Shown here piece by piece: positions 1 to 9,234 of a stretch of DNA of 9,234 nucleotides. Source of the DNA: a virus (Duplodnaviria; Heunggongvirae; Uroviricota; Caudoviricetes); the IMG/VR virus record IMGVR_UViG_2534681773_000016, positions 1 through 9,234 of that record; one strand, given 5' to 3'. The first letter of the stretch is position 1. Every line of letters begins with the position of its first letter. The notes under the pieces are model-generated. The model did no database searches and was not told the DNA's origin. It worked only from the letters and a program-made list of their open reading frames with translations. Made by a program: the position numbers and the translations under genes.

Positions 1-1839
1 TATGATGTTGTCAGGGCGGCGTCGCCGTCAGACCTTGCGGAAAAGCTGACACACAAACTGAAAGAGGGCTGGCAGCCATACGGCGGACCGGTTGCCATTA
101 CGCCGTACACACTGATGCAGGCGGTGGCTATTGAAGGAGATCCACAGGTCGGCCCTTCATCTGAGCCGGACTGGTTCTACGTGGTTGTGCTTGCCGGACA
201 GTCCAACGGCATGGCCTACGGTGAAGGGCTTCCGTTACCGGATTCTTACGATGCTCCGGATCCGCGCATTAAACAGCTGGCGCGCCGCAGCACGGTAACT
301 CCGGGTGGAGAGAGTTGTACGTATAACGACATCATCCCGGCTGACCACTGTCTGCATGATGTGCAGGATATGAGTACGCTGAATCATCCGAAGGCAGACC
401 TGAGCAAAGGGCAGTACGGCTGTGTCGGCCAGGGCTTACATATTGCCAAAAAACTGCTCCCGTATATCCCGAATAACGCGGGGATCCTGCTGGTACCATG
501 CTGTCGTGGTGGTTCGGCATTCACCCAGGGCGCGGAGGGGACATTCAGTGCGGACGCGGGGGCCAGCCAGGATTCGGCGCGCTGGGGTGTGGGTAAACCG
601 TTATATCAGGACCTGATTGCGCGCACTAAAGCTGCATTACAGAAGAACCCGAAAAATGTGTTGCTGGCGGTGTGCTGGATGCAGGGAGAGTTTGACATGA
701 GCGCCGCCACCTACGCACAGCAACCTGCGCTGTTTACAGCCATGCTGAAGCAGTTTCGTGCTGACCTCACTGTGTTTAACGCGCAGTGTCATGGTGGCAG
801 TGCTGCAGATGTGCCGTGGATTTGTGGTGACACGACGTATTACTGGAAAAATACATACGCTACCCAGTACGACACCGTGTACGGCGGGTATAAAAACAGG
901 GAGAGTGAGGGCGTTTATTTTGTGCCCTTCATGGCAGACGGTAACGGCGTCAATACCGCCACTAACGCGCCGGCAGAAGATCCGGATATTCCGGCATCAG
1001 GATATTACGGTGCGGCATCGAGAACGAATGGAAACCAGGTATCATCAAACCGCCCGACACATTTCAGTTCATGGGCGCGCAGGAGCATTATTCCGGATCG
1101 TCTGGCAACCGCTATTCTGAACGCAGCCGGGCGCACCTCAGCCTTCATCAGTGGTAAGGCACCGGAAATCAAACCCTCGCCCGGCGGCAACACGCCATCG
1201 GGTCCGTCTGCAGATACGTCCGTTCGCACAATCTCCCTGCTGCCGGCAGCCGGAGAGGCTGCTGCGCAGGGCTGGAGCATTAAGGATGGCGGAATTCAGT
1301 TGTCAGATGGTGTATTTAAGATCACCAAGCAGAGCAATAAAACCTGGTCCCTGACGCATCCGGTGGATGACGCAATTACCCTGCTGACACAGGGCGGCAG
1401 ACTGACCTGTAAGTTCCGCCTGTCAGGCGCACTGACCAACAATCAGTTCGGGCTGGGGATTTATCTGTATACGGATGCTCCCGTTCCTGATGGTGTGGCG
1501 ATGACGGGTACCGGTAATCCGTTCCTGATGTCGTACTTCACTCAGACCACTGACGGCAGAGTGAATCTGATGCATCACAGGAAAGCCGGAAACACGAAGC
1601 TGGGGGAGTTCGGCGATTACGGTAACGACTGGCAGACGCTGGAGCTGGTGTTCACCGCCGGCAGTGCCACGGTTACTCCGAAACTGAATGGAGTGGCTGG
1701 CCCGGCATTCCAGGTTATAAAAGACGGTCTGACACTGGGACTGAATGCGCTGACGCTGACGGATGTTACCAAAAATGCAGCGTATGGCGTTGAGATAGAA
1801 AGTCTGGTGCTGGAGATAAATGCACCGGCATCATCATAA
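1..1839 (+). CDS. nanS-p: Prophage sialate O-acetylesterase, NanS-p-like (DUF1737-like N-terminal segment + SASA/SGNH esterase + C-terminal domain); 5' end lies upstream of the window
   Basis: Frame 1 is open from base 1 to TAA at 1837-1839; the ORF track starts at M115 only because the true start is outside the window. Residues 1-40 (YDVVRAASPSDLAEKLTHKLKEGWQPYGGPVAITPYTLMQ) look like the DUF1737 segment. The GQSNGMAYGEG block at ~aa 66-76 is the SASA-family (GQSN) variant of the SGNH active-site motif. Position immediately upstream of the holin matches NanS-p genes of Stx/lambdoid prophages. Confidence 0.8.
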   Translation, partial: YDVVRAASPSDLAEKLTHKLKEGWQPYGGPVAITPYTLMQAVAIEGDPQVGPSSEPDWFYVVVLAGQSNGMAYGEGLPLPDSYDAPDPRIKQLARRSTVTPGGESCTYNDIIPADHCLHDVQDMSTLNHPKADLSKGQYGCVGQGLHIAKKLLPYIPNNAGILLVPCCRGGSAFTQGAEGTFSADAGASQDSARWGVGKPLYQDLIARTKAALQKNPKNVLLAVCWMQGEFDMSAATYAQQPALFTAMLKQFRADLTVFNAQCHGGSAADVPWICGDTTYYWKNTYATQYDTVYGGYKNRESEGVYFVPFMADGNGVNTATNAPAEDPDIPASGYYGAASRTNGNQVSSNRPTHFSSWARRSIIPDRLATAILNAAGRTSAFISGKAPEIKPSPGGNTPSGPSADTSVRTISLLPAAGEAAAQGWSIKDGGIQLSDGVFKITKQSNKTWSLTHPVDDAITLLTQGGRLTCKFRLSGALTNNQFGLGIYLYTDAPVPDGVAMTGTGNPFLMSYFTQTTDGRVNLMHHRKAGNTKLGEFGDYGNDWQTLELVFTAGSATVTPKLNGVAGPAFQVIKDGLTLGLNALTLTDVTKNAAYGVEIESLVLEINAPASS

Positions 1840-1924
1840 AAAGTGAGCCAGTCAAATGGAAGGTATCGTTAAACTCACCGGTAGTGTCAGTGGGTCGTCT
1901 GAGATGCCTGCATGAGTTATCAGA

Positions 1925-1954
1925 GCCATCAGTACTTAACTGGTGGCTTTTTTT
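1925..1954 (+). terminator. Rho-independent terminator between nanS-p and the holin
   Basis: 8-bp stem 1925-1932 (GCCATCAG) pairing with 1940-1947 (CTGGTGGC), one G-U pair, 7-nt loop, followed by T7 at 1948-1954. Confidence 0.7.
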
Positions 1955-1989
1955 ATTGTTGTCAGCTTCCGGATAACGGGAGACGGGGT

Positions 1990-2205
1990 ATGTACCAGAT
2001 GGAAAAAATCACAACAGGTGTGTCATACACCACGTCAGCGGTGGGAACGGGCTACTGGTTCCTGCAGTTGCTGGACAGGGTTTCCCCGTCTCAGTGGGCG
2101 GCAATAGGCGTGCTGGGGAGTCTGCTGTTTGGGCTGCTGACATATCTGACTAACCTGTATTTCAAAATCAGAGAGGACCGTCGTAAGGCTGCACGGGGAG
2201 AGTAA
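1990..2205 (+). CDS. S: Class II pinholin, phage 21 S21-like, with dual-start motif (Met1 at 1990, Met4 at 1999)
   Basis: 71 aa, [71 protein letters not shown]. Two TMDs and a charged C-terminus, near-identical in pattern to S21 68/71 as I remember it. GGGAGACGGGG SD-like element sits upstream of ATG 1990. The ORF-track start at 1912 is rejected because it precedes the terminator and lacks an RBS. Confidence 0.9.
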
Positions 2206-2209
2206 TTCA

Positions 2210-2524
2210 ATGACTCAAAACTATGAACTGATTGTGAAAGGGATCCGCAATTTTGAGAATAAAGTTACGGTAACTTTAGCGTTACGGGACAAAAAACGCT
2301 TTGACGGTGAAATTTTTGACCTGGACATCTCGCTGGACCGTGTTGAAGGTGCCGCGCTGGAGTTTTATGAGGCAGCAGCCAGAAGGAGCATCAGACAGGT
2401 CTTCCTGGATGTTGCTGCCGGGTTATGTGAAGAGGACGAGCTGTTGCCAGAAACGCGCCCCTGTTCAGAGGCGCGGAATACCATAAAAATTAACAGTTCT
2501 GATAACTCGATTACGTGTTGTTAG
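2210..2524 (+). CDS. Small conserved prophage protein between holin and endolysin (YdfR / DUF1327-like, from memory)
   Basis: 104-aa ORF starting 5 nt after the holin stop, with GGAGAG SD 9 nt upstream. N-terminal half (MTQNYELIVKGIRNFENKVTVTLALRDKKRFDGEIFDLD...) resembles the small ORF found at this position in E. coli Qin-type lysis cassettes. Family assignment is unverified. Confidence 0.65.
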   Translation: MTQNYELIVKGIRNFENKVTVTLALRDKKRFDGEIFDLDISLDRVEGAALEFYEAAARRSIRQVFLDVAAGLCEEDELLPETRPCSEARNTIKINSSDNSITCC

Positions 2525-2579
2525 CTTTTTGCAGTTGGCTTTCCAGTATCTTTCATTGGTAGCATCCTGATAAATATCC

Positions 2580-3113
2580 ATGAGCGCAAAAATCAAATAC
2601 GGCCTGTCAGCTGCTGTTCTGGCGCTGATTGCTGCAGGCGCGTCTGCTCCTCAGATACTTGACCAGTTTCTGGACGAAAAAGAGGGTAACCACACAACGG
2701 CATACCGCGATGGTTCCGGCATCTGGACCATCTGTCGGGGGGCCACGATGGTGGATGGAAAACCCGTTTTTCCCGGTATGAAACTGTCGAAGGAAAAATG
2801 CGACCAGGTCAACGCCATTGAGCGTGATAAGGCGCTGGCATGGGTGGAGAAAAACATCAAAGTGCCATTGAGCGAACCCCAGAAAGCGGGGATCGCGTCA
2901 TTCTGTCCGTACAACATTGGTCCCGGTAAGTGTTTCCCGTCGACGTTTTATAAACGAATTAATGCAGGTGATCGCAGGGGAGCGTGTGAGGCGATTCGCT
3001 GGTGGATTAAGGACGGTGGCAGAGACTGCCGTATTCGTTCAAACAACTGCTACGGTCAGGTATCCCGTCGTGACCAGGAGAGCGCGCTGGCGTGCTGGGG
3101 TATCGACAGATAA
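2580..3113 (+). CDS. R: SAR (signal-anchor-release) endolysin, T4-lysozyme-like (GH24), R21/P1 Lyz type
   Basis: 177 aa. N-terminal Gly/Ala/Ser-rich weakly hydrophobic SAR domain (GLSAAVLALIAAGASA) followed by the catalytic E...D...T spacing (DEKEGNHTTAYRDGSGIWTICRGAT). Pairing with a pinholin is the expected arrangement. Confidence 0.9.
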   Translation: MSAKIKYGLSAAVLALIAAGASAPQILDQFLDEKEGNHTTAYRDGSGIWTICRGATMVDGKPVFPGMKLSKEKCDQVNAIERDKALAWVEKNIKVPLSEPQKAGIASFCPYNIGPGKCFPSTFYKRINAGDRRGACEAIRWWIKDGGRDCRIRSNNCYGQVSRRDQESALACWGIDR

Positions 3114-3207
3114 GCAGAATATTTTGCTGAAAAATAAGGCATGGCCACGCGGGCGGATAACATGAAATCCTGCGAACTGGCGAAACGTAAGTGAATAAAA
3201 GTAAAAA

Positions 3208-3237
3208 CCCCGTTTGTTGGCACCAAGCGGGGGTTTT
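3208..3237 (+). terminator. Terminator-like hairpin in the R-Rz intergenic insertion
   Basis: 9-bp stem 3208-3216 pairing with 3224-3232 (one G-U), 7-nt loop, then T4 at 3234-3237. An A5 run at 3203-3207 upstream means it could act on either strand. The T-tract is short, so strength is moderate. Confidence 0.5.
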
Positions 3238-3273
3238 GTGTTTCCTGACTCCGGAAAAGTCAAAGGAGAAAGT

Positions 3274-3411
3274 GTGTTTGATTTTAGCAAACTGATTCGG
3301 GAGATTCGAGTGATGGCTGAAAAATTATCCACCTGGAAGTTCATTCTTATCTGGCTGGTGTTTGTGATTATGGCCTCCGGTTATTTCATCGGTCAGATAC
3401 GCTGGTGGTGA
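3274..3411 (+). CDS. Small single-TMD membrane protein of unknown function, inserted between endolysin and Rz
   Basis: GTG start at 3274 preceded by AAGGAG (3263-3268) with a 5-nt spacer. 45 aa with one hydrophobic helix ([22 protein letters not shown]). Stop TGA 3409-3411 lies 1 nt before the Rz ATG at 3413, suggesting translational coupling. An alternative start at ATG 3313 would give 32 aa. Confidence 0.55.
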
Positions 3412-3412
3412 A

Positions 3413-3880
3413 ATGAACCGCGTACTGTGCGTGGTCATCATTGCCCTGCTGGTGGCCTGTGGTGCGCTTAGTCTGGGGCTGAATCATTACCGTGATAACG
3501 CCATTACCTACAAAGCCCAGCGCGACAAAAATGTCAGAGAACTGAAGCTGGCGAACGCGGCAATTACTGACATGCAGATGCGTCAGCGTGATGTTGCTGC
3601 GCTCGATGCAAAATACACGAAGGAGTTAGCTGATGCGAAAGCTGAAAATGATGCTCTTCGTCGCAAGCTTGATAATGGTGGCAGGGTGCTCGTCAAAGGA
3701 AAATGCCCTGTGCCATCCTCAGCCGAAACCTCCAGCGCCTCCGGCATGGGCAATGATGCCACCGTCGAACTCTCTCCAGTTGCTGGACGAAACGTTCTCG
3801 GTATCCGGGACGGAATTATCCGCGACCAAACAGCACTGAGAACGCTTCAGGAATACATCAGGACGCAATGCCTTCGATGA
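3413..3880 (+). CDS. Rz: Rz i-spanin (inner-membrane spanin subunit)
   Basis: 155 aa with N-terminal TMD. Central segment [59 protein letters not shown] is essentially lambda Rz as I remember it; both termini differ. Confidence 0.9.
3633..3839 (+). CDS. Rz1: Rz1 o-spanin lipoprotein, embedded in the +1 frame of Rz
   Basis: 68 aa. Signal peptide with lipobox MVAGC, followed by a proline-rich stretch ([17 protein letters not shown]). Lies wholly inside Rz in another frame, the canonical embedded-spanin arrangement. Confidence 0.85.
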
Positions 3881-4054
3881 TAGCGATAATTTTACTCATC
3901 ATCCTTCACATCTGGCTCTGTAGACAGGGTGGTGATCACTTCTGGAGTGAATCCAGATTTAACATCTCATTGCTGATGCTTGATATTGAGCATCTTGCGC
4001 GCGGTAAGGAGCTGCGTTGAGATAAGAGCCAGTCATCACAAACACCAGGATTTA

Positions 4055-4077
4055 GCCTCGCATTCGCGGGGCTTTTT
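4055..4077 (+). terminator. Rho-independent terminator downstream of Rz/Rz1
   Basis: 7-bp stem 4055-4061 (GCCTCGC) pairing with 4066-4072 (GCGGGGC), one G-U, 4-nt loop ATTC, then T5 at 4073-4077. Confidence 0.65.
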
Positions 4078-4098
4078 ATTGCAACAAAGGTAAAGACG

Positions 4099-4386
4099 AT
4101 GGATGAAGAATATCGTAAAGACCTGCAATTGTGGTTTGGCCTGACGCATGCGTCGTTCTGCGTGATGCCGAGAGTATTCATGGAGGCTATGCCGCAAGAA
4201 TGGCAAGAGAAGATGGCGCAGTTGCTTTTTGAGTATGGCGACACGATCAAAACGGATGTCTGCGGAGTTCACAGCTGTTTCGTTACTGCCAAAGACGGCA
4301 ACAACCGCTTTATGAGGATGCCAGAAGATATTCTGAACTATCGTCATCCCCGGCGTGAGTTCATCGAATCATTTCTGAAGAAGTAG
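4099..4386 (+). CDS. Hypothetical protein (moron ORF A), family not recognised
   Basis: 95-aa ORF with ATG start and weak AAGG SD. Codon usage looks enterobacterial (CTG, GCG, CCG). Contains a His/Cys cluster (H17, C21, C65, H68, C70). Sits 21 nt after the terminator. Confidence 0.55.
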   Translation: MDEEYRKDLQLWFGLTHASFCVMPRVFMEAMPQEWQEKMAQLLFEYGDTIKTDVCGVHSCFVTAKDGNNRFMRMPEDILNYRHPRREFIESFLKK

Positions 4387-4479
4387 CCATTACAAAGTCT
4401 ATCTGCGGGGGGCTTGATAAAGGTGCTTTCACCTCGCTTAGCATGGTATGTTCTGACTACCAACTTTTTGGGAGGACAC

Positions 4480-4704
4480 ATGGAACTGATAAATGGACGG
4501 CCAGGCAGAGATTTTATAGTGGGAACATATACCTACTCAGAAATTAAAGATCTTAACTTCATGGCTAAGGAAGAGAAAAGAGCTCGTGAAGAGCTAAAGC
4601 ATCGGGGTTACGAATTGGCGTATATCAAGGCGGACTCTGAATGTAACGGGATGTTTGTCAGGGCGTACCGGGTCTATACTGACAAAGCGCCATCTAATGT
4701 CTAA
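4480..4704 (+). CDS. Hypothetical small protein (moron ORF B), family not recognised
   Basis: 74-aa ORF from ATG 4480 with GGGAGGA SD at 4470-4476. Highly charged (KEEKRAREELKHR). The ORF-track start at 4414 is a TTG without RBS and is rejected. GC about 44% by hand count. Confidence 0.55.
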   Translation: MELINGRPGRDFIVGTYTYSEIKDLNFMAKEEKRAREELKHRGYELAYIKADSECNGMFVRAYRVYTDKAPSNV

Positions 4705-4751
4705 ATATACCTCGGGCGGTTTTTTACGTTCATTACCGTACGCAATTACAG

Positions 4752-4779
4752 CAGGCATTCATTGAGTGCCTGTGATAAT
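4752..4779 (+). promoter_or_regulatory. Candidate extended -10 promoter overlapped by an inverted repeat, upstream of moron ORF C
   Basis: TGtGATAAT at 4771-4779 is an extended -10-like element. Inverted repeat CAGGCA (4752-57) / TGCCTG (4767-72) with a 9-nt spacer overlaps the -35-equivalent region, which is itself poor (GCAGGC). No experimental support. Confidence 0.3.
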
Positions 4780-4839
4780 GATTTATCAACGTGCTTGCAA
4801 ACGGTATTCTAGACCTCCAATTATCCTAAGGAGGTTTTT

Positions 4840-5244
4840 GTGGTTAAAAATTTAGAATACATGAAGGGGATGCTTGAGGTATTTTTGAAAGCGAAAACTC
4901 CCTTTATATCTACAAAAGACTTAGCTAATGCGGGGTACGATATCTGCTCGAATGAAGGGATGTTTCATTATCTACTTCTTATTGAGCAAGGTTATATCAG
5001 TAATAAAGATCTAATAACGGATGACATAACTAAACTGGGCTACATGCGCCATTGTGGCCATATGCTAGATATGGGTACCGACGTGCGACTATCTGCGCAG
5101 GGACAAGAATTCGCCCAGGCATTAAATGAACCTACGGTTTTTGAGAAATTAAAGTCAATGAGCGATGCCCCTTTGAGTACAATCAAAGATGTTGGGCTGG
5201 AGTTAACGAAGGCCTATTTAAAGAAGAAATTTGGCCTCGAGTAA
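4840..5244 (+). CDS. Hypothetical protein (moron ORF C), low GC; possibly a winged-helix-type small protein (DUF2513-like is a guess)
   Basis: 134-aa ORF from GTG 4840, preceded by the strongest SD in the window (AAGGAGG 4828-4834, 5-nt spacer). GC about 40% by hand count over 4801-5280, versus 50% or more in terminase and esterase genes. Confidence 0.6.
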   Translation: MVKNLEYMKGMLEVFLKAKTPFISTKDLANAGYDICSNEGMFHYLLLIEQGYISNKDLITDDITKLGYMRHCGHMLDMGTDVRLSAQGQEFAQALNEPTVFEKLKSMSDAPLSTIKDVGLELTKAYLKKKFGLE

Positions 5245-5304
5245 AATTTCTACCCTCACGAGTTAAGTTGTTTTGTGATGGTTATTCGCAATGAATATCT
5301 CTAG

Positions 5305-5331
5305 CCACTGGCATTTGCTGGTGGTTTTTTT
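5305..5331 (+). terminator. Rho-independent terminator closing the moron cassette, upstream of cos
   Basis: 8-bp stem 5305-5312 (CCACTGGC) pairing with 5317-5324 (GCTGGTGG), two G-U pairs, 4-nt loop, then T7 at 5325-5331. Confidence 0.55.
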
Positions 5332-5456
5332 ATGCGCATCCCTCGCGCACCACAAAGGGAGTCTTTCAGTAGTGATTCTGAATATCAGTGTGATAAACGT
5401 ATTTGACAATCATTATCATTTTTGGTGGGTCCTTTCCGGCGATCCGACAGGTTACG

Positions 5457-5468
5457 GGGCGGCGACCT
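5457..5468. other. cosN: cosN cohesive-end site (12-nt sequence GGGCGGCGACCT), with a lambda-like cosQ-side flank upstream
   Basis: 5424-5502 reads GGTGGGTCCTTTCCGGcGATCCGACAGGTTACG / GGGCGGCGACCT / CGCGGGTTTTCGCTATTTATGAAAATTTTCCGG. From memory this matches the lambda right end plus the first ~46 nt of the lambda left end with one mismatch. It sits ~185 bp upstream of the small terminase gene, as in lambda. Confidence 0.85.
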
Positions 5469-5505
5469 CGCGGGTTTTCGCTATTTATGAAAATTTTCCG
5501 GGATC

Positions 5506-5604
5506 CATGTCCGGTTTCTCTGCAAGTTAACTATATGAAAAATATAAAAACAGGCTGTCCGTGAACCGGACATGTGCAAAAAACGGACATGTAAACCGGA
5601 CATG
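5506..5604. repeat. cosB: cosB-like region: four copies of a 9-mer (CCGGACATG) flanking an AT-rich tract; candidate small-terminase binding sites
   Basis: CATGTCCGG at 5506-5514 (inverted) and CCGGACATG at 5566-5574, aCGGACATG at 5583-5591, CCGGACATG at 5596-5604 (direct). AT-rich tract AAAAATATAAAAA at 5539-5551 lies between them, analogous to the lambda R3-I1-R2-R1 layout but with a different repeat sequence. Additional inverted repeat AACCGG(n6)CCGGTT at 5594-5611. Confidence 0.6.
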
Positions 5605-5651
5605 ACCGGTTTTGTGCTGATTGTGAGGTAAGAGTTTTTGCGAGGTGAGGA

Positions 5652-6161
5652 GTGGCTACGCAGACTGAAGTTGCCAGGCATTTGAGTCTGACCGATCGCC
5701 AGCTTCGCAGATTGCAGAAATTACCGGGTGCCCCGGTCTCGAATAAGCGAGGGCAACTGGATCTGGATGCCTGGCGCGATTTTTACATATCGTATCTGAG
5801 AAGAAGTAAAAACGATGTGCCTGATGGCGATAGCGAAGAAGACTATGAAGAGAAATTGCTTATTGCCAGATGGGAACTGACAGCAGAACAGGCTGTTACA
5901 CAGCAGTTAAAAAATGAGGTGTCAAAAGGAAAACTGATTGACACCGGGTTCTGTATTTTTGCCCTCAGTAAGCTGGCAATGGCGTTATCCAGTACGCTTG
6001 ATTCCATCCCTTTATCCATGCAGCGACAGTTTCCTGATTTAACACCGCGCCATCTTGACCATCTGAAAACCCTTATTGCTAAGGGGGCAAATCAGTGTGC
6101 GCGGGCAGGGGATAAATTACCGGATTTACTTGATGAATATATCAGAGCAACAACTGAATAA
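5652..6161 (+). CDS. Terminase small subunit (lambda gpNu1 family)
   Basis: 169 aa from GTG start with GAGGTGAGGA SD. C-terminal two thirds align to lambda Nu1 from memory (TGFCIFALSKLAMALSSTLDSIPLSMQRQFPDLTPRHLDHLK vs TAFCTFVLSRIAGEIASILDGLPLSVQRRFPELENRHVDFLK). The N-terminal HTH region is divergent. Confidence 0.9.
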   Translation: MATQTEVARHLSLTDRQLRRLQKLPGAPVSNKRGQLDLDAWRDFYISYLRRSKNDVPDGDSEEDYEEKLLIARWELTAEQAVTQQLKNEVSKGKLIDTGFCIFALSKLAMALSSTLDSIPLSMQRQFPDLTPRHLDHLKTLIAKGANQCARAGDKLPDLLDEYIRATTE

Positions 6162-8060
6162 TATGATGAGCGCTGTCACAACTGCATTACAGCCCCTGAT
6201 AAGGGCATTGCCGGTGACGCCAGTTGAATGGGCTGATCAAAATTATTATCTGCCTAAAGAATCTTCATATGGTGAGGGCGAATGGAAAACGCTGCCATTC
6301 CAGATCGCCATCATGAACAGCATGGGGAATGATCAGATCCGCACTGTTAATCTGATTAAATCTGCCCGTGTTGGCTATACAAAGATGTTGCTGGGGGTGG
6401 TCGGGTATTTTATTGAGCATAAATCCCGAAACAGTCTGCTTTTTCAGCCCACGGATTCTGCCGCTGAAGATTTTATGAAGTCTCACGTGGAGGCGACGAT
6501 TCGGAACGTGCCATGCCTGAAAGACCTTTCCCCATGGCTGGGTCGTAAACATCGTGACAATACTCTCACGCTGAAACGCTTTTCATCGGGCGTCGGTTTC
6601 TGGTGCCTGGGCGGCGCTGCCGCCAAAAACTACCGTGAAAAATCCGTGGACGTGGTCTGTTATGACGAGCTTTCCTCGTTCGAACCGGATGTTGAAAAAG
6701 AGGGTTCGCCAACCCTGCTGGGGGATAAACGTATTGAGGGCTCTGTATGGCCAAAATCCATTCGCGGCTCGACGCCTAAAATCAAAGGCTCCTGCCAGAT
6801 CGAAAAAGCCGCTAACGAGTCGGCACACTTCATGCGTTTTTATGTGCCCTGTCCGCACTGTGGGGAGGAGCAGTATCTGAAATTTGGCGATGATGCCTCG
6901 CCTTTCGGTCTTAAGTGGGAGAAGAATAAGCCAGAAAGTGTTTTCTACCTTTGTGAGCATCATGGCTGTGTGATCCATCAGTCTGAGCTTGACCAGAGTA
7001 ACGGGCGGTGGATCTGTGAAAACACGGGCATGTGGACCCGTGACGGCCTGATGTTTTTCAGCGCCCGGGGTGATGAAATTCCGCCGCCGCGCTCCATCAC
7101 TTTCCATATCTGGACGGCGTACAGTCCGTTCACCACCTGGGTACAGATTGTCTATGACTGGCTGGATGCACTGAAAGATCCCAACGGCCTGAAAACCTTT
7201 GTGAACACCACGCTGGGCGAGACCTGGGAAGAGGCCGTGGGCGAAAAACTCGATCACCAGGTGCTGATGGATAAGGTTGTGCGTTACACGGCGGCGGTGC
7301 CTGCCCGGGTGGTTTATCTGACGGCGGGCATTGACTCGCAGCGAAACCGTTTTGAGATGTATGTCTGGGGATGGGCTCCGGGAGAGGAAGCCTTTCTGGT
7401 GGATAAAATCATCATTATGGGGCGTCCCGATGAGGAAGAGACGCTGTTACGTGTGGATGCGGCGATCAACAAAAAATACCGCCATGCAGACGGAACCGAA
7501 ATGACCATTTCCCGTGTCTGCTGGGACATCGGGGGGATCGATGGCGAAATCGTTATCAGAGGTCAAAAAAACACGGTGTTTTCCGGGTGCTGCCGGTAAA
7601 AGGCGCATCTGTCTATGGCAAGCCGGTGATCACCATGCCAAAAACCCGCAATCAGCGGGGCGTGTATCTGTGTGAAGTGGGGACGGACACCGCAAAAGAA
7701 ATTCTCTATGCCCGTATGAAAGCCGATCCCACGCCTGTGGATGAAGCCACGTCGTATGCCATCCGTTTTCCTGATGATCCGGAGATTTTTTCGCAGACAG
7801 AGGCGCAGCAACTGGTCGCGGAAGAGCTTGTGGAGAAGTGGGAAAAAGGAAAGATGCGTCTGCTGTGGGATAACAAAAAGCGGCGTAACGAAGCGCTGGA
7901 CTGCCTGGTGTATGCCTACGCGGCATTACGTGTGTCCGTGCAACGCTGGCAGCTTGATCTGGCTGTACTGGCAAAATCCCGGGAAGAAGAGACGACCCGG
8001 CCAACCCTGAAAGAACTGGCAGCGAAGCTGTCCGGAGGAGTGAATGGTTACAGTCGCTGA
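6133..8060 (+). pseudogene. Terminase large subunit (lambda gpA family) interrupted by a 1-nt frameshift (frame 1 to frame 3) near 7555-7572
   Basis: Frame 1 from ATG 6133 (MNISEQQ..., overlapping the Nu1 end as in lambda) carries Walker A KSARVGYTK and aligns to gpA up to ...CWDIGGIDGEIVI, then hits TAA at 7597-7599. Homology continues in frame 3 (RSKKHGVFRVLPVKGASVYGKPV ... to TGA 8058-8060). Combined length is about 642 aa versus 641 for lambda gpA. The true start is ATG 6133, not the ORF-track start at 6076. Confidence 0.75.
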
Positions 8061-8250
8061 ACTGCAGGCGCTGCGTCAGGCGCGCCTTGATTTATTAACC
8101 GGTAAACGGGTGGTGTCTGACCAGAAAGATGGTCGCAGAATTGAATATACGGCGGCTTCTCTGGATGAGCTTAACCGGGCGATCAATGATGCGGAGTCGG
8201 TACTGGGGACAACCCGGTGTCGCCGTCGTCCGCTGGGAGTGAGATTATGA
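8044..8250 (+). CDS. W: Head-tail joining / head completion protein, lambda gpW family
   Basis: 68 aa. LTGKRVVSDQKDGRRIEYTAASLDEL matches lambda gpW [26 protein letters not shown]. Start overlaps the end of the terminase frame-3 segment. Confidence 0.85.
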   Translation: MVTVAELQALRQARLDLLTGKRVVSDQKDGRRIEYTAASLDELNRAINDAESVLGTTRCRRRPLGVRL

Positions 8251-9234
8251 AACGAACGCCTGTCCTGATTGATGTGAACGGCGTTCCGCTTCGTGAGAGT
8301 CTCAGCTACAACGGGGGCGGTGCAGGATTTGGCGGGCAAATGGCTGAGTGGTTGCCACCGGCGCAGAGTGTCGATGCGGCCCTGCTGCCCGCGTTGCGTC
8401 TGGGGAATGCCCGGGCAGATGATCTGGTGCGCAATAACGGAATAGCGGCTAATGCGGTGGCCCTGCATAAGGATCACATTGTCGGGCATATGTTTCTGAT
8501 CAGCTACCGTCCGAACTGGCGCTGGCTGGGGATGCGGGAGACCGCAGCAAAAAGCTTTGTCGATGAGGTGGAGGCGGCCTGGTCGGAATACGCCGAAGGG
8601 ATGTCTGGCGAGATCGACGTGGAAGGAAAACGCACGTTCACGGAATTTATCCGTGAAGGTGTGGGCGTTCATGCGTTTAACGGCGAAATCTTTGTGCAGC
8701 CGGTCTGGGATACGGAAGCCACGCAGTTATTCCGTACGCGTTTTAAAGCCGTGAGTCCGAAACGGGTGGACACGCCTGGACACGGTATGGGGAACCGTTT
8801 TCTGCGGGCCGGTGTGGAGGTCGATCGATATGGCCGTGCCGTCGCGTACCATATCTGTGAGGATGATTTTCCGCGCTCCGGGAGTGGACGATGGGAACGG
8901 ATCCCGCGTGAACTTCCCACCGGGCGTCCGGCCATGCTGCATATTTTCGAGCCGGTGGAGGACGGGCAGACCCGTGGGGCTAATCAGTTTTACAGCGTCA
9001 TGGAACGGCTGAAGATGCTCGATTCCCTGCAGGCAACACAGCTTCAGTCGGCCATAGTGAAAGCCATGTATGCAGCGACGATTGAAAGTGAACTTGATAC
9101 CGAAAAGGCCTTTGAATATATCGCCGGCGCGCCACAGGAGCAGAAGGATAATCCGCTTATTAATATTCTGGAGAAGTTCTCCAGCTGGTATGACACGAAT
9201 AACGTGACACTGGCGGTGTCAAAATTCCGCACCT
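8247..9234 (+). CDS. B: Portal protein, lambda gpB family; 3' end lies beyond the window
   Basis: Frame 3 is open from ATG 8247 (ATGA overlap with the W stop; GGAG SD) to the window end. Absent from the ORF track because no stop occurs in the window. Translation MKRTPVLIDVNGVPLRESLSYNGGGAGFGGQ ... HIFEPVEDGQTRGANQFYSVMERLKMLDSLQATQLQSAIVKAMYAATIESELDT aligns closely with lambda gpB. Confidence 0.9.
   Translation, partial: MKRTPVLIDVNGVPLRESLSYNGGGAGFGGQMAEWLPPAQSVDAALLPALRLGNARADDLVRNNGIAANAVALHKDHIVGHMFLISYRPNWRWLGMRETAAKSFVDEVEAAWSEYAEGMSGEIDVEGKRTFTEFIREGVGVHAFNGEIFVQPVWDTEATQLFRTRFKAVSPKRVDTPGHGMGNRFLRAGVEVDRYGRAVAYHICEDDFPRSGSGRWERIPRELPTGRPAMLHIFEPVEDGQTRGANQFYSVMERLKMLDSLQATQLQSAIVKAMYAATIESELDTEKAFEYIAGAPQEQKDNPLINILEKFSSWYDTNNVTLAVSKFRT

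Follow-up and report, generated by a model that had tools for sequence, protein, structure and literature searches.

A micro-ORF between the endolysin and Rz genes of an H-19B-like prophage probably belongs to a mobile, promoterless, moron-like late-gene cassette

Two groups of described genes are among the closest to the element analysed here, a 45-codon open reading frame (micro-ORF) for a small membrane protein that lies between the endolysin gene (R) and the spanin gene Rz in IMG/VR virus record IMGVR_UViG_2534681773_000016. One is the phage morons, exemplified by HK97 gene 15, an extra gene separating late genes that lie side by side in related phages (Cumby, Davidson & Maxwell 2012, PMC3594210); the definition of a moron includes a promoter and a terminator of its own for expression in the prophage (PMC3594210). 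The other consists of the Mu gp25 releasin (PMC9239132) and LambdaSo Lcc6 (10.1101/2024.01.23.576932), small single-pass membrane proteins outside the holin/endolysin/spanin trio that act at the inner membrane in lysis by pinholins or signal-anchor-release (SAR) endolysins. The gp25 protein (DUF2730, 99 aa) has an N-out/C-in topology with an N-terminal transmembrane domain (TMD) and a long cytoplasmic C-terminal domain (PMC9239132); Lcc6 (65 aa) has an N-terminal TMD and a cytoplasmic C-terminal domain, and it is an example of such a factor whose gene lies far from the lysis cassette (10.1101/2024.01.23.576932). The stretch under study (the window, 9,234 nt, positions 1 to 9,234 of the record) is the late region of a lambdoid, H-19B-like Escherichia coli prophage. 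We think it probable that the gap between its endolysin and Rz genes consists of a conserved flank followed by a mobile, promoterless, moron-like late-gene cassette for an inner-membrane microprotein.

The gap measures 299 bp (endolysin end 3113, Rz start 3413), and the features described in it lie on the + strand unless the minus strand is named. Because DLP12, Qin and PhiR49_2 have overlapping endolysin and Rz genes, these 299 bp are extra DNA in the window. About 85 nt adjoining the endolysin gene (3114-3198, delimited by alignments), with the core GGATAACATGAAATCC at 3155-3170, recur in H-19B-type, 933W-type and Salmonella P22-like lysis cassettes, whether the micro-ORF cassette is present or not. 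Since 933W-type phages that lack the cassette share this flank, we place it outside the mobile unit. The alignments revealed no conserved ORF in the flank, and its core GGATAACAnnAAATCC (3155-3170) forms a 4-bp mini-palindrome. The remaining ~215 nt (about 3199-3411) make up the promoterless cassette, which comprises in order a hairpin (hairpin T), a second stem (stem S) with the Shine-Dalgarno (SD) sequence, the GTG start, the gene and a terminal coupling junction. The block conserved in orthologous alignments runs from the A-run of the hairpin to the stop codon of the micro-ORF. GC content was 43.5-46.7% in the insert versus 53% in R and Rz. A comparison of the filled site of the window with the empty site of PhiR49_2 (one pair) revealed no target-site duplication.

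Of 5426 complete E. coli genomes, 871 carry the entire 299-bp segment; H-19B and many Stx1/Stx2 (Shiga toxin) phages have it too, and it is usually unannotated. For the census of genomic contexts, the best 80 matches per scan were taken with ~2.5-3 kb of flank per locus. Across the 183 loci, the cassette had neighbours from 14 upstream and 7 downstream families. The commonest slot was between endolysin and i-spanin, and in lysis cassettes the insert always lay there. Nevertheless, its partners varied widely. The adjoining endolysins belonged to five unrelated families, namely the phrog_7 lysozyme type, GH19 (phrog_181), phrog_873, GH108-like (phrog_315) and an M15-like peptidase, and the last four of these showed no N-terminal membrane segment in the residues read. 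The spanins included PF03245/phrog_13, DUF2514/phrog_312 and others (at least two confirmed i-spanin families), and the holins were of at least four types, including S21-type, HP1-type and holin_8, with some loci having no holin nearby. Outside lysis cassettes, the insert occurred between baseplate genes (baseplate wedge) in Yersinia, Pantoea, Actinobacillus phage pPE4 and >35 viral contigs. In Azoarcus it lay between genes for T7-like internal virion proteins; at further loci it followed other structural genes or an ant gene, and in a Pseudomonas phage it was part of a moron island among the tail genes. Both hairpin T and stem S accompanied the micro-ORF in every context type. The presence of the same cassette at junctions in many unrelated phages suggests that it is a mobile accessory gene and not a dedicated lysis component, and the variety of endolysin, holin and spanin partners together with the non-lysis slots lends no support to a function tied to pinholins or SAR endolysins.

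In phage CP-1639 (L002, 2443-2798), most of the endolysin gene is missing and stx1B lies close upstream, while the cassette and Rz are retained; the depositors labelled the micro-ORF 'putative bacteriophage protein'. Distant members (~40-50% identity) at L194:454-603, L196:927-1079 and L198:3001-3144 still carry hairpin T, and their neighbours are a PrlF/YhaV toxin-antitoxin pair, a DUF5675 gene or metabolic genes.

The micro-ORF itself (3274-3411, TGA at 3409-3411) has the SD sequence AAGGAG at 3263-3268, a 5-nt spacer and a GTG start at 3274-3276. It belongs to phrog_6632, on whose profile residues 1-45 match positions 1-45 (E = 6.4e-30), and it is called by PGAP in some genomes as hypothetical protein WP_000459345.1 in RefSeq. 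Between E. coli, Salmonella and E. fergusonii, the Nei-Gojobori ratio of nonsynonymous to synonymous substitutions (dN/dS) was 0.09-0.15 in frame 0 versus 0.75-8 in the other two frames. The mean pairwise differences per codon position were 12.3 / 4.6 / 16.8 for 50 distinct full-length DNA versions, of which 48 start with GTG and 2 with TTG, and the frame was intact in 173 of the 183 copies collected. An ORF annotated on the minus strand in CP-1639 (3039-3344 in the window) was rejected, as the substitutions agree with the + strand frame alone. Among 1.8 billion representative proteins, a profile search gave 40 clusters at E < 1e-3, with relatives across Enterobacterales and also in Pseudomonas and Azoarcus. 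Judged from these substitution patterns, the micro-ORF is a real gene under purifying selection.

The most conserved part of the protein is the N-terminal motif SK(L/I)(I/L)RE(L/I)R-x-M-x-E-(K/R)-L-P-x-W-(K/R)-F, which precedes the membrane span and supports the long, GTG-initiated product. Hydropathy places the span at residues about 23-42, and the AlphaFold2 model (pLDDT 85) consists of a helix at 4-17, a break and a helix at 20-44. The first helix is amphipathic by its hydrophobic moment, and the C-terminus reads RWW. The product is thus predicted to be a bitopic inner-membrane microprotein with an amphipathic N-terminal helix, a kink and one membrane helix. The 45-aa protein gave no meaningful match in Pfam or NCBIfam and 0 families in PADLOC-DB at E <= 1. 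No paper on the micro-ORF was found by accession or by peptide, the peptide is absent from the supplements of the Sakai ribosome-profiling paper, and the Enterobacteriaceae microproteome preprint does not discuss it. An initial annotation of this DNA, made from the letters alone, had described an insertion of ~300 bp with a hairpin terminator at 3208-3237, a strong SD, a GTG at 3274 and a 45-aa ORF whose stop precedes the Rz ATG by 1 nt, and had taken the product for a small, translationally coupled membrane protein with a single transmembrane helix; all of this holds in our analysis, where the hairpin is a stem-loop at 3208-3232 plus a T-run, the SD is AAGGAG, and the micro-ORF is membrane-targeted and tightly coupled to Rz. 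The conservation of the reading frame, which it had proposed as a check, proved strong, and its remark that this is no named lysis gene agrees with a PHROG family that has no assigned function.

Hairpin T (3203-3243) forms the 5' boundary of the cassette. After an A-run (3203-3207), CCCCGTTTG (3208-3216) pairs with CAAGCGGGG (3224-3232) across a 7-nt loop, and a U-rich tail, TTTTGTGTTT, follows at 3234-3243. The fold has an energy of -16.3 kcal/mol (z = -2.3). With its 9-bp stem, 6 GC pairs, 7-nt loop and the tail GTTTTGTGTT, hairpin T looks like an intrinsic terminator, and its symmetry suggests that it may be read as such on both strands; the U-run is poor in the hairpin of the Azoarcus relative. 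A terminator scan returned 4 in the scanned region versus 2.1 expected, which is not significant alone, and we accept hairpin T as real because it is conserved, not because of the scan. In ~1 Mb of phage DNA searched, the hairpin T pattern was not found away from the micro-ORF, which speaks against a generic repeated terminator driving recombination.

Stem S (3246-3262; TGACT 3246-3250 / AGTCA 3258-3262, 7-nt loop) directly abuts the SD in the window, and in most relatives its 3' arm overlaps the SD (CCTTG / CAAGG-GAG). A stem of at least 5 bp was present at this position in 71% of 42 distinct leaders versus 8% of shuffles. It was built from 13 different arm pairs (including CCTTG/CAAGG, CGTTA/TAACG, TGACT/AGTCA and TCCTAT/ATAGGA), and 90% of its alignment cells were paired. 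In the T and S helices taken together, compensatory changes affected 8 of 14 pairs (6 in T), and 86% of the cells were paired versus 30-61% when the partners were slid (plain MAFFT alignment). The support for stem S comes solely from covariation. The plan of the leader is kept in relatives of 40-50% identity, namely Pseudomonas phage YMC11/02/R656, an Azoarcus metagenome-assembled genome and metagenomes. An Rfam scan of the whole window (E <= 1) gave no match, hence hairpin T and the 85-nt flank correspond to no described RNA family. On the + strand of 3114-3274, a consensus scan limited to sigma-70 detected no promoter-like sequence, and the leader alignment, too short for a conserved promoter, contained no conserved -35/-10. 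With no promoter found and so short a leader, the gene should be read only from late-operon transcripts.

Within the gene, a candidate internal ribosome-binding site (3299-3315) consists of GGGAG at 3299-3303, 9 nt before an in-frame ATG at 3313 (Met14). Met14 is invariant, and GGAG is kept 9 nt before it in 49 of 50 copies. At codon 9, 44 of the 50 distinct copies have CGG or AGG and the remaining 6 have ATG, CAG or AAG, and at codon 10, 49 have GAG; Arg43, unlike codon 9, uses five different codons. Synonymous divergence was 0.27 for codons 2-13 versus 0.73 for codons 23-43. In Pseudomonas, Azoarcus and other relatives, the SD-like run is held by other codons. It is plausible from these patterns that a second isoform of 32 aa, lacking the amphipathic helix, starts at ATG 3313. 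Dual-start holin/antiholin genes, such as lambda S107/S105 and phage 21 S71/S68, yield a longer product with extra charged N-terminal residues, and RNA structure near the ribosome-binding site tunes their expression. The micro-ORF resembles them as a small membrane-protein gene with two in-frame starts, the second only inferred here. It differs in that the candidate starts are 13 codons apart, it has no holin homology and it is not restricted to lysis cassettes.

Copies without the leader and the first 6-13 codons were observed in Serratia-type baseplate loci (L027:~3013-3114 and L121:~2501-2620). In these, the baseplate gene upstream ends directly before the shortened ORF, which starts at or near Met14, in line with an internal start, and is otherwise intact.

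At the 3' junction (3404-3415), GGTGG (3404-3408) is followed by the TGA (3409-3411), one base and the Rz ATG (3413-3415). The SD-like GGTGG is supplied by the Trp-Trp codons of the C-terminus (CGN TGG TGG TGA). Elsewhere, the start of the following gene lies 1-25 nt beyond the micro-ORF stop or overlaps it. As read from its sequence, this junction would translationally re-couple the downstream gene.

A different solution is found in the same slot of 933W-type phages, where ant and a 48-aa single-TMD ORF (phrog_4906) replace the cassette after the same 85-nt flank (L006:1947-2093 in Stx2 phage II, 933W type; L191:598-744; L192:2501-2647). Like the phrog_6632 ORF, it is a single-TMD micro-ORF between R and Rz, immediately before the Rz ATG. 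Unlike it, it has no hairpin leader; its own ATG overlaps the stop codon of ant (TGATG), and 7 nt separate its end from Rz. The phrog_4906 ORF was found only in E. coli and is under weaker purifying selection (dN/dS 0.32-0.45). Homology between the two families was rejected, with an hhalign probability of 0.2%.

The likeness to morons raises the possibility that the gene is a classical moron, expressed from the repressed prophage and encoding, as HK97 gene 15 does, a small inner-membrane protein for superinfection exclusion or another benefit to the lysogen. It shares with morons the insertion between genes that are adjacent in relatives, a deviating GC content (lower than that of its neighbours), a horizontal spread among unrelated phages into many late-operon slots, including a moron island, and a small inner-membrane product; HK97 gp15 is an exclusion protein of this type in a tail operon (PMC3594210). 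However, no promoter of its own was detected in a leader that is too short for one, the hairpin lies upstream and no terminator downstream, and at its 3' end the cassette has a coupling junction with the next gene, which begins within 1-25 nt (at Rz, 1 nt after the stop). The lack of a promoter, the upstream terminator and the coupled 3' end make prophage expression unlikely. In addition, there was no PADLOC match, and the product has no sequence similarity to HK97 gp15/YebO (no Pfam match). We regard a classical moron as unlikely; the membrane-targeted exclusion factor put forward in the initial annotation remains a candidate, weakened by the upstream terminator and the failure to find a promoter. 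The initial annotation had also read the position of the gene as pointing to an antiholin-like or SAR-release role, in other words to a dedicated regulator of lysis timing in the pinholin/SAR-endolysin system. Such a regulator would be at home in an S21 / SAR-R / Rz cassette and coupled to Rz, the endolysin-spanin junction is the commonest location, a non-homologous single-TMD ORF fills the same slot in 933W-type phages, and Mu gp25 (PMC9239132) and LambdaSo Lcc6 (10.1101/2024.01.23.576932) are precedents of small membrane proteins required for SAR/pinholin lysis. But the same ORF and leader stand beside four other endolysin families (GH19, phrog_873, GH108-like and M15-like) whose residues read lack an N-terminal membrane segment, with HP1-type, holin_8 and other holins, with varied spanins, and in baseplate, internal virion protein and tail slots, so that position no longer argues for this role and synteny is not confined to phage-21-type lysis cassettes. 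An antiholin would be paired with one cognate holin family, whereas here S21-type, HP1-type, holin_8 or no holin was nearby, and a holin-specific antiholin role is unlikely. There was no holin Pfam match, and kinship with the releasin or Lcc6 was rejected on domain (no DUF2730 match above noise), size and topology, as the 45-aa product is predicted to have a cytoplasmic N-terminal helix and a C-terminal TMD, opposite to gp25 and Lcc6. A dedicated lysis regulator is, in our estimate, quite improbable.

A toxic membrane-active peptide, similar to a type I toxin or an auxiliary holin and kept damped by the terminator, the structured ribosome-binding site and the GTG start, would agree with the size and the hydrophobic helix, and all three damping features are conserved across the family. 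The mRNAs of type I toxins, e.g., tisB, have structured, poorly accessible ribosome-binding sites, which we counted in favour of such a peptide. On the other hand, the best-conserved part of the protein is not the membrane span but the cytoplasmic helix, which points to a specific partner. Type I toxin-antitoxin systems have a conserved antisense RNA with its own promoter; we found no Rfam match and no conserved antisense promoter or RNA, and the lone promoter-like site on the minus strand (3396-3367) was rejected, since neither Salmonella nor E. fergusonii conserves it. We give a toxic peptide little credence. It is also conceivable that the element is mainly a cis-acting expression adaptor, in which the terminator/RNA hairpin is selected and the ORF only ferries ribosomes to the next start. 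The stop that always lies 1-25 nt from the next start or overlaps it, the SD-like terminal TGGTGG, and the frozen synonymous sites of codons 2-13, which show a constraint at the RNA level, are in line with this idea. Yet purifying selection on amino acids is seen over the full length of the ORF, synonymous changes are plentiful in codons 23-43, the peptide motif is kept down to 40% identity despite different C-termini and neighbours, and the truncated copies retain the ORF where the hairpin is lost. An adaptor of this kind is highly improbable.

Several points weigh against our preferred reading of the gap as a conserved flank plus a mobile, promoterless cassette. The context census is biased by its restriction to the best matches and short flanks, and the enrichment at the endolysin-spanin junction could still reflect a lysis function. 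The promoter scan used the sigma-70 consensus only, so weak or other promoters could escape it, and a conserved A-rich ATAAAG just 5' of hairpin T might serve as a weak -10 element. It is hard to make sense of an upstream terminator where late transcription is not antiterminated, as in the baseplate contexts, and these contexts leave the role of hairpin T unexplained. Stem S is thermodynamically weak, with a single-sequence folding energy no better than that of shuffles, and RNAalifold, applied from the U-run to codon 24, gave no consensus structure and did not call the stem; by the same result, long-range pairing does not explain the frozen synonymous sites of codons 2-13. The internal SD could be a by-product of a peptide rich in Lys, Arg and Glu. 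Finally, the literature gave no expression, localisation or phenotype data for any phrog_6632 member.

Late transcripts of lambda are made by a Q-modified, terminator-resistant polymerase. We propose that read-through from the late promoter is the sole source of cassette transcripts and that, in lambdoid phages, the Q-modified polymerase would ignore hairpin T. The upstream terminator, the structured ribosome-binding site and the GTG start would all reduce expression; translation would be low because of the GTG start and the structured leader, and two isoforms may arise, of 45 aa and, from ATG 3313, of 32 aa. The protein would be tail-anchored and inserted post-translationally, with the N-terminus in the cytoplasm and the C-terminus out, and at the end of infection its conserved cytoplasmic helix may act on a target in the host or on a generic one in the envelope. 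Termination beside the Rz ATG would restore the translational coupling otherwise broken by the insertion. As to function, our leading guess, which we hold tentatively, is an effect on terminal envelope events, either lysis timing or lysis efficiency. A more far-reaching interpretation, which we put forward as a speculation and consider doubtful, is that the element represents an unrecognised class of promoterless 'plug-in' cassette. Its 5' hairpin module and 3' coupling junction would allow insertion at any late-operon gene boundary without polar effects, and its two-isoform microprotein would be a holin-type-independent modulator of final envelope events (the lysis clock or efficiency) in a large proportion of the temperate phages of enterobacteria, Shiga-toxin phages among them. 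Shiga toxin is released through phage-mediated lysis. Any effect of the microprotein on the timing or efficiency of lysis would have a bearing on phage burst and on the release of this toxin. Whatever its function, the cassette appears to show a small gene moving between unrelated operons with its own translational control and with downstream coupling restored, and the conserved 45-aa product with a possible internal start offers a test case for microprotein biology.

Upstream of the gap, the window contains genes for a SASA-type esterase (115-1839), a class II S21-type holin (about 1990-2205; PF04971), a YdfR/DUF1327 protein (2210-2524, +, 104 aa) and the endolysin (2580-3113, +, 177 aa), which is of the lysozyme family (PF00959, E = 2e-24; phrog_7) and has an Ala/Gly-rich N-terminal segment, YGLSAAVLALIAAGASAP, consistent with a SAR domain. 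Downstream, the Rz i-spanin gene (3413-3880, +; PF03245, phrog_13) has the Rz1 o-spanin gene embedded in its +1 frame (3633-3839, +; PF06085, phrog_3198), and the terminase genes are located further 3'. The YdfR/DUF1327 gene is another accessory insertion within the lysis cassette of the window, between holin and endolysin, and the same arrangement is seen in the Qin prophage of K-12. A second unannotated micro-ORF beside the spanin genes encodes 50 aa (3868-4020, +; phrog_11822, E = 2e-36); it starts inside the final Rz codons, has a hydrophobic N-terminus and was also gene-called after Rz in locus L191. Two more terminator-like hairpins on the + strand, at 1922-1950 before the S holin gene and at 4054-4073 before a 95-aa ORF (4099-4386; phrog_3527), each lie ~25-40 nt 5' of the ORF start, suggesting that a layout of hairpin then gene recurs along the late operon.

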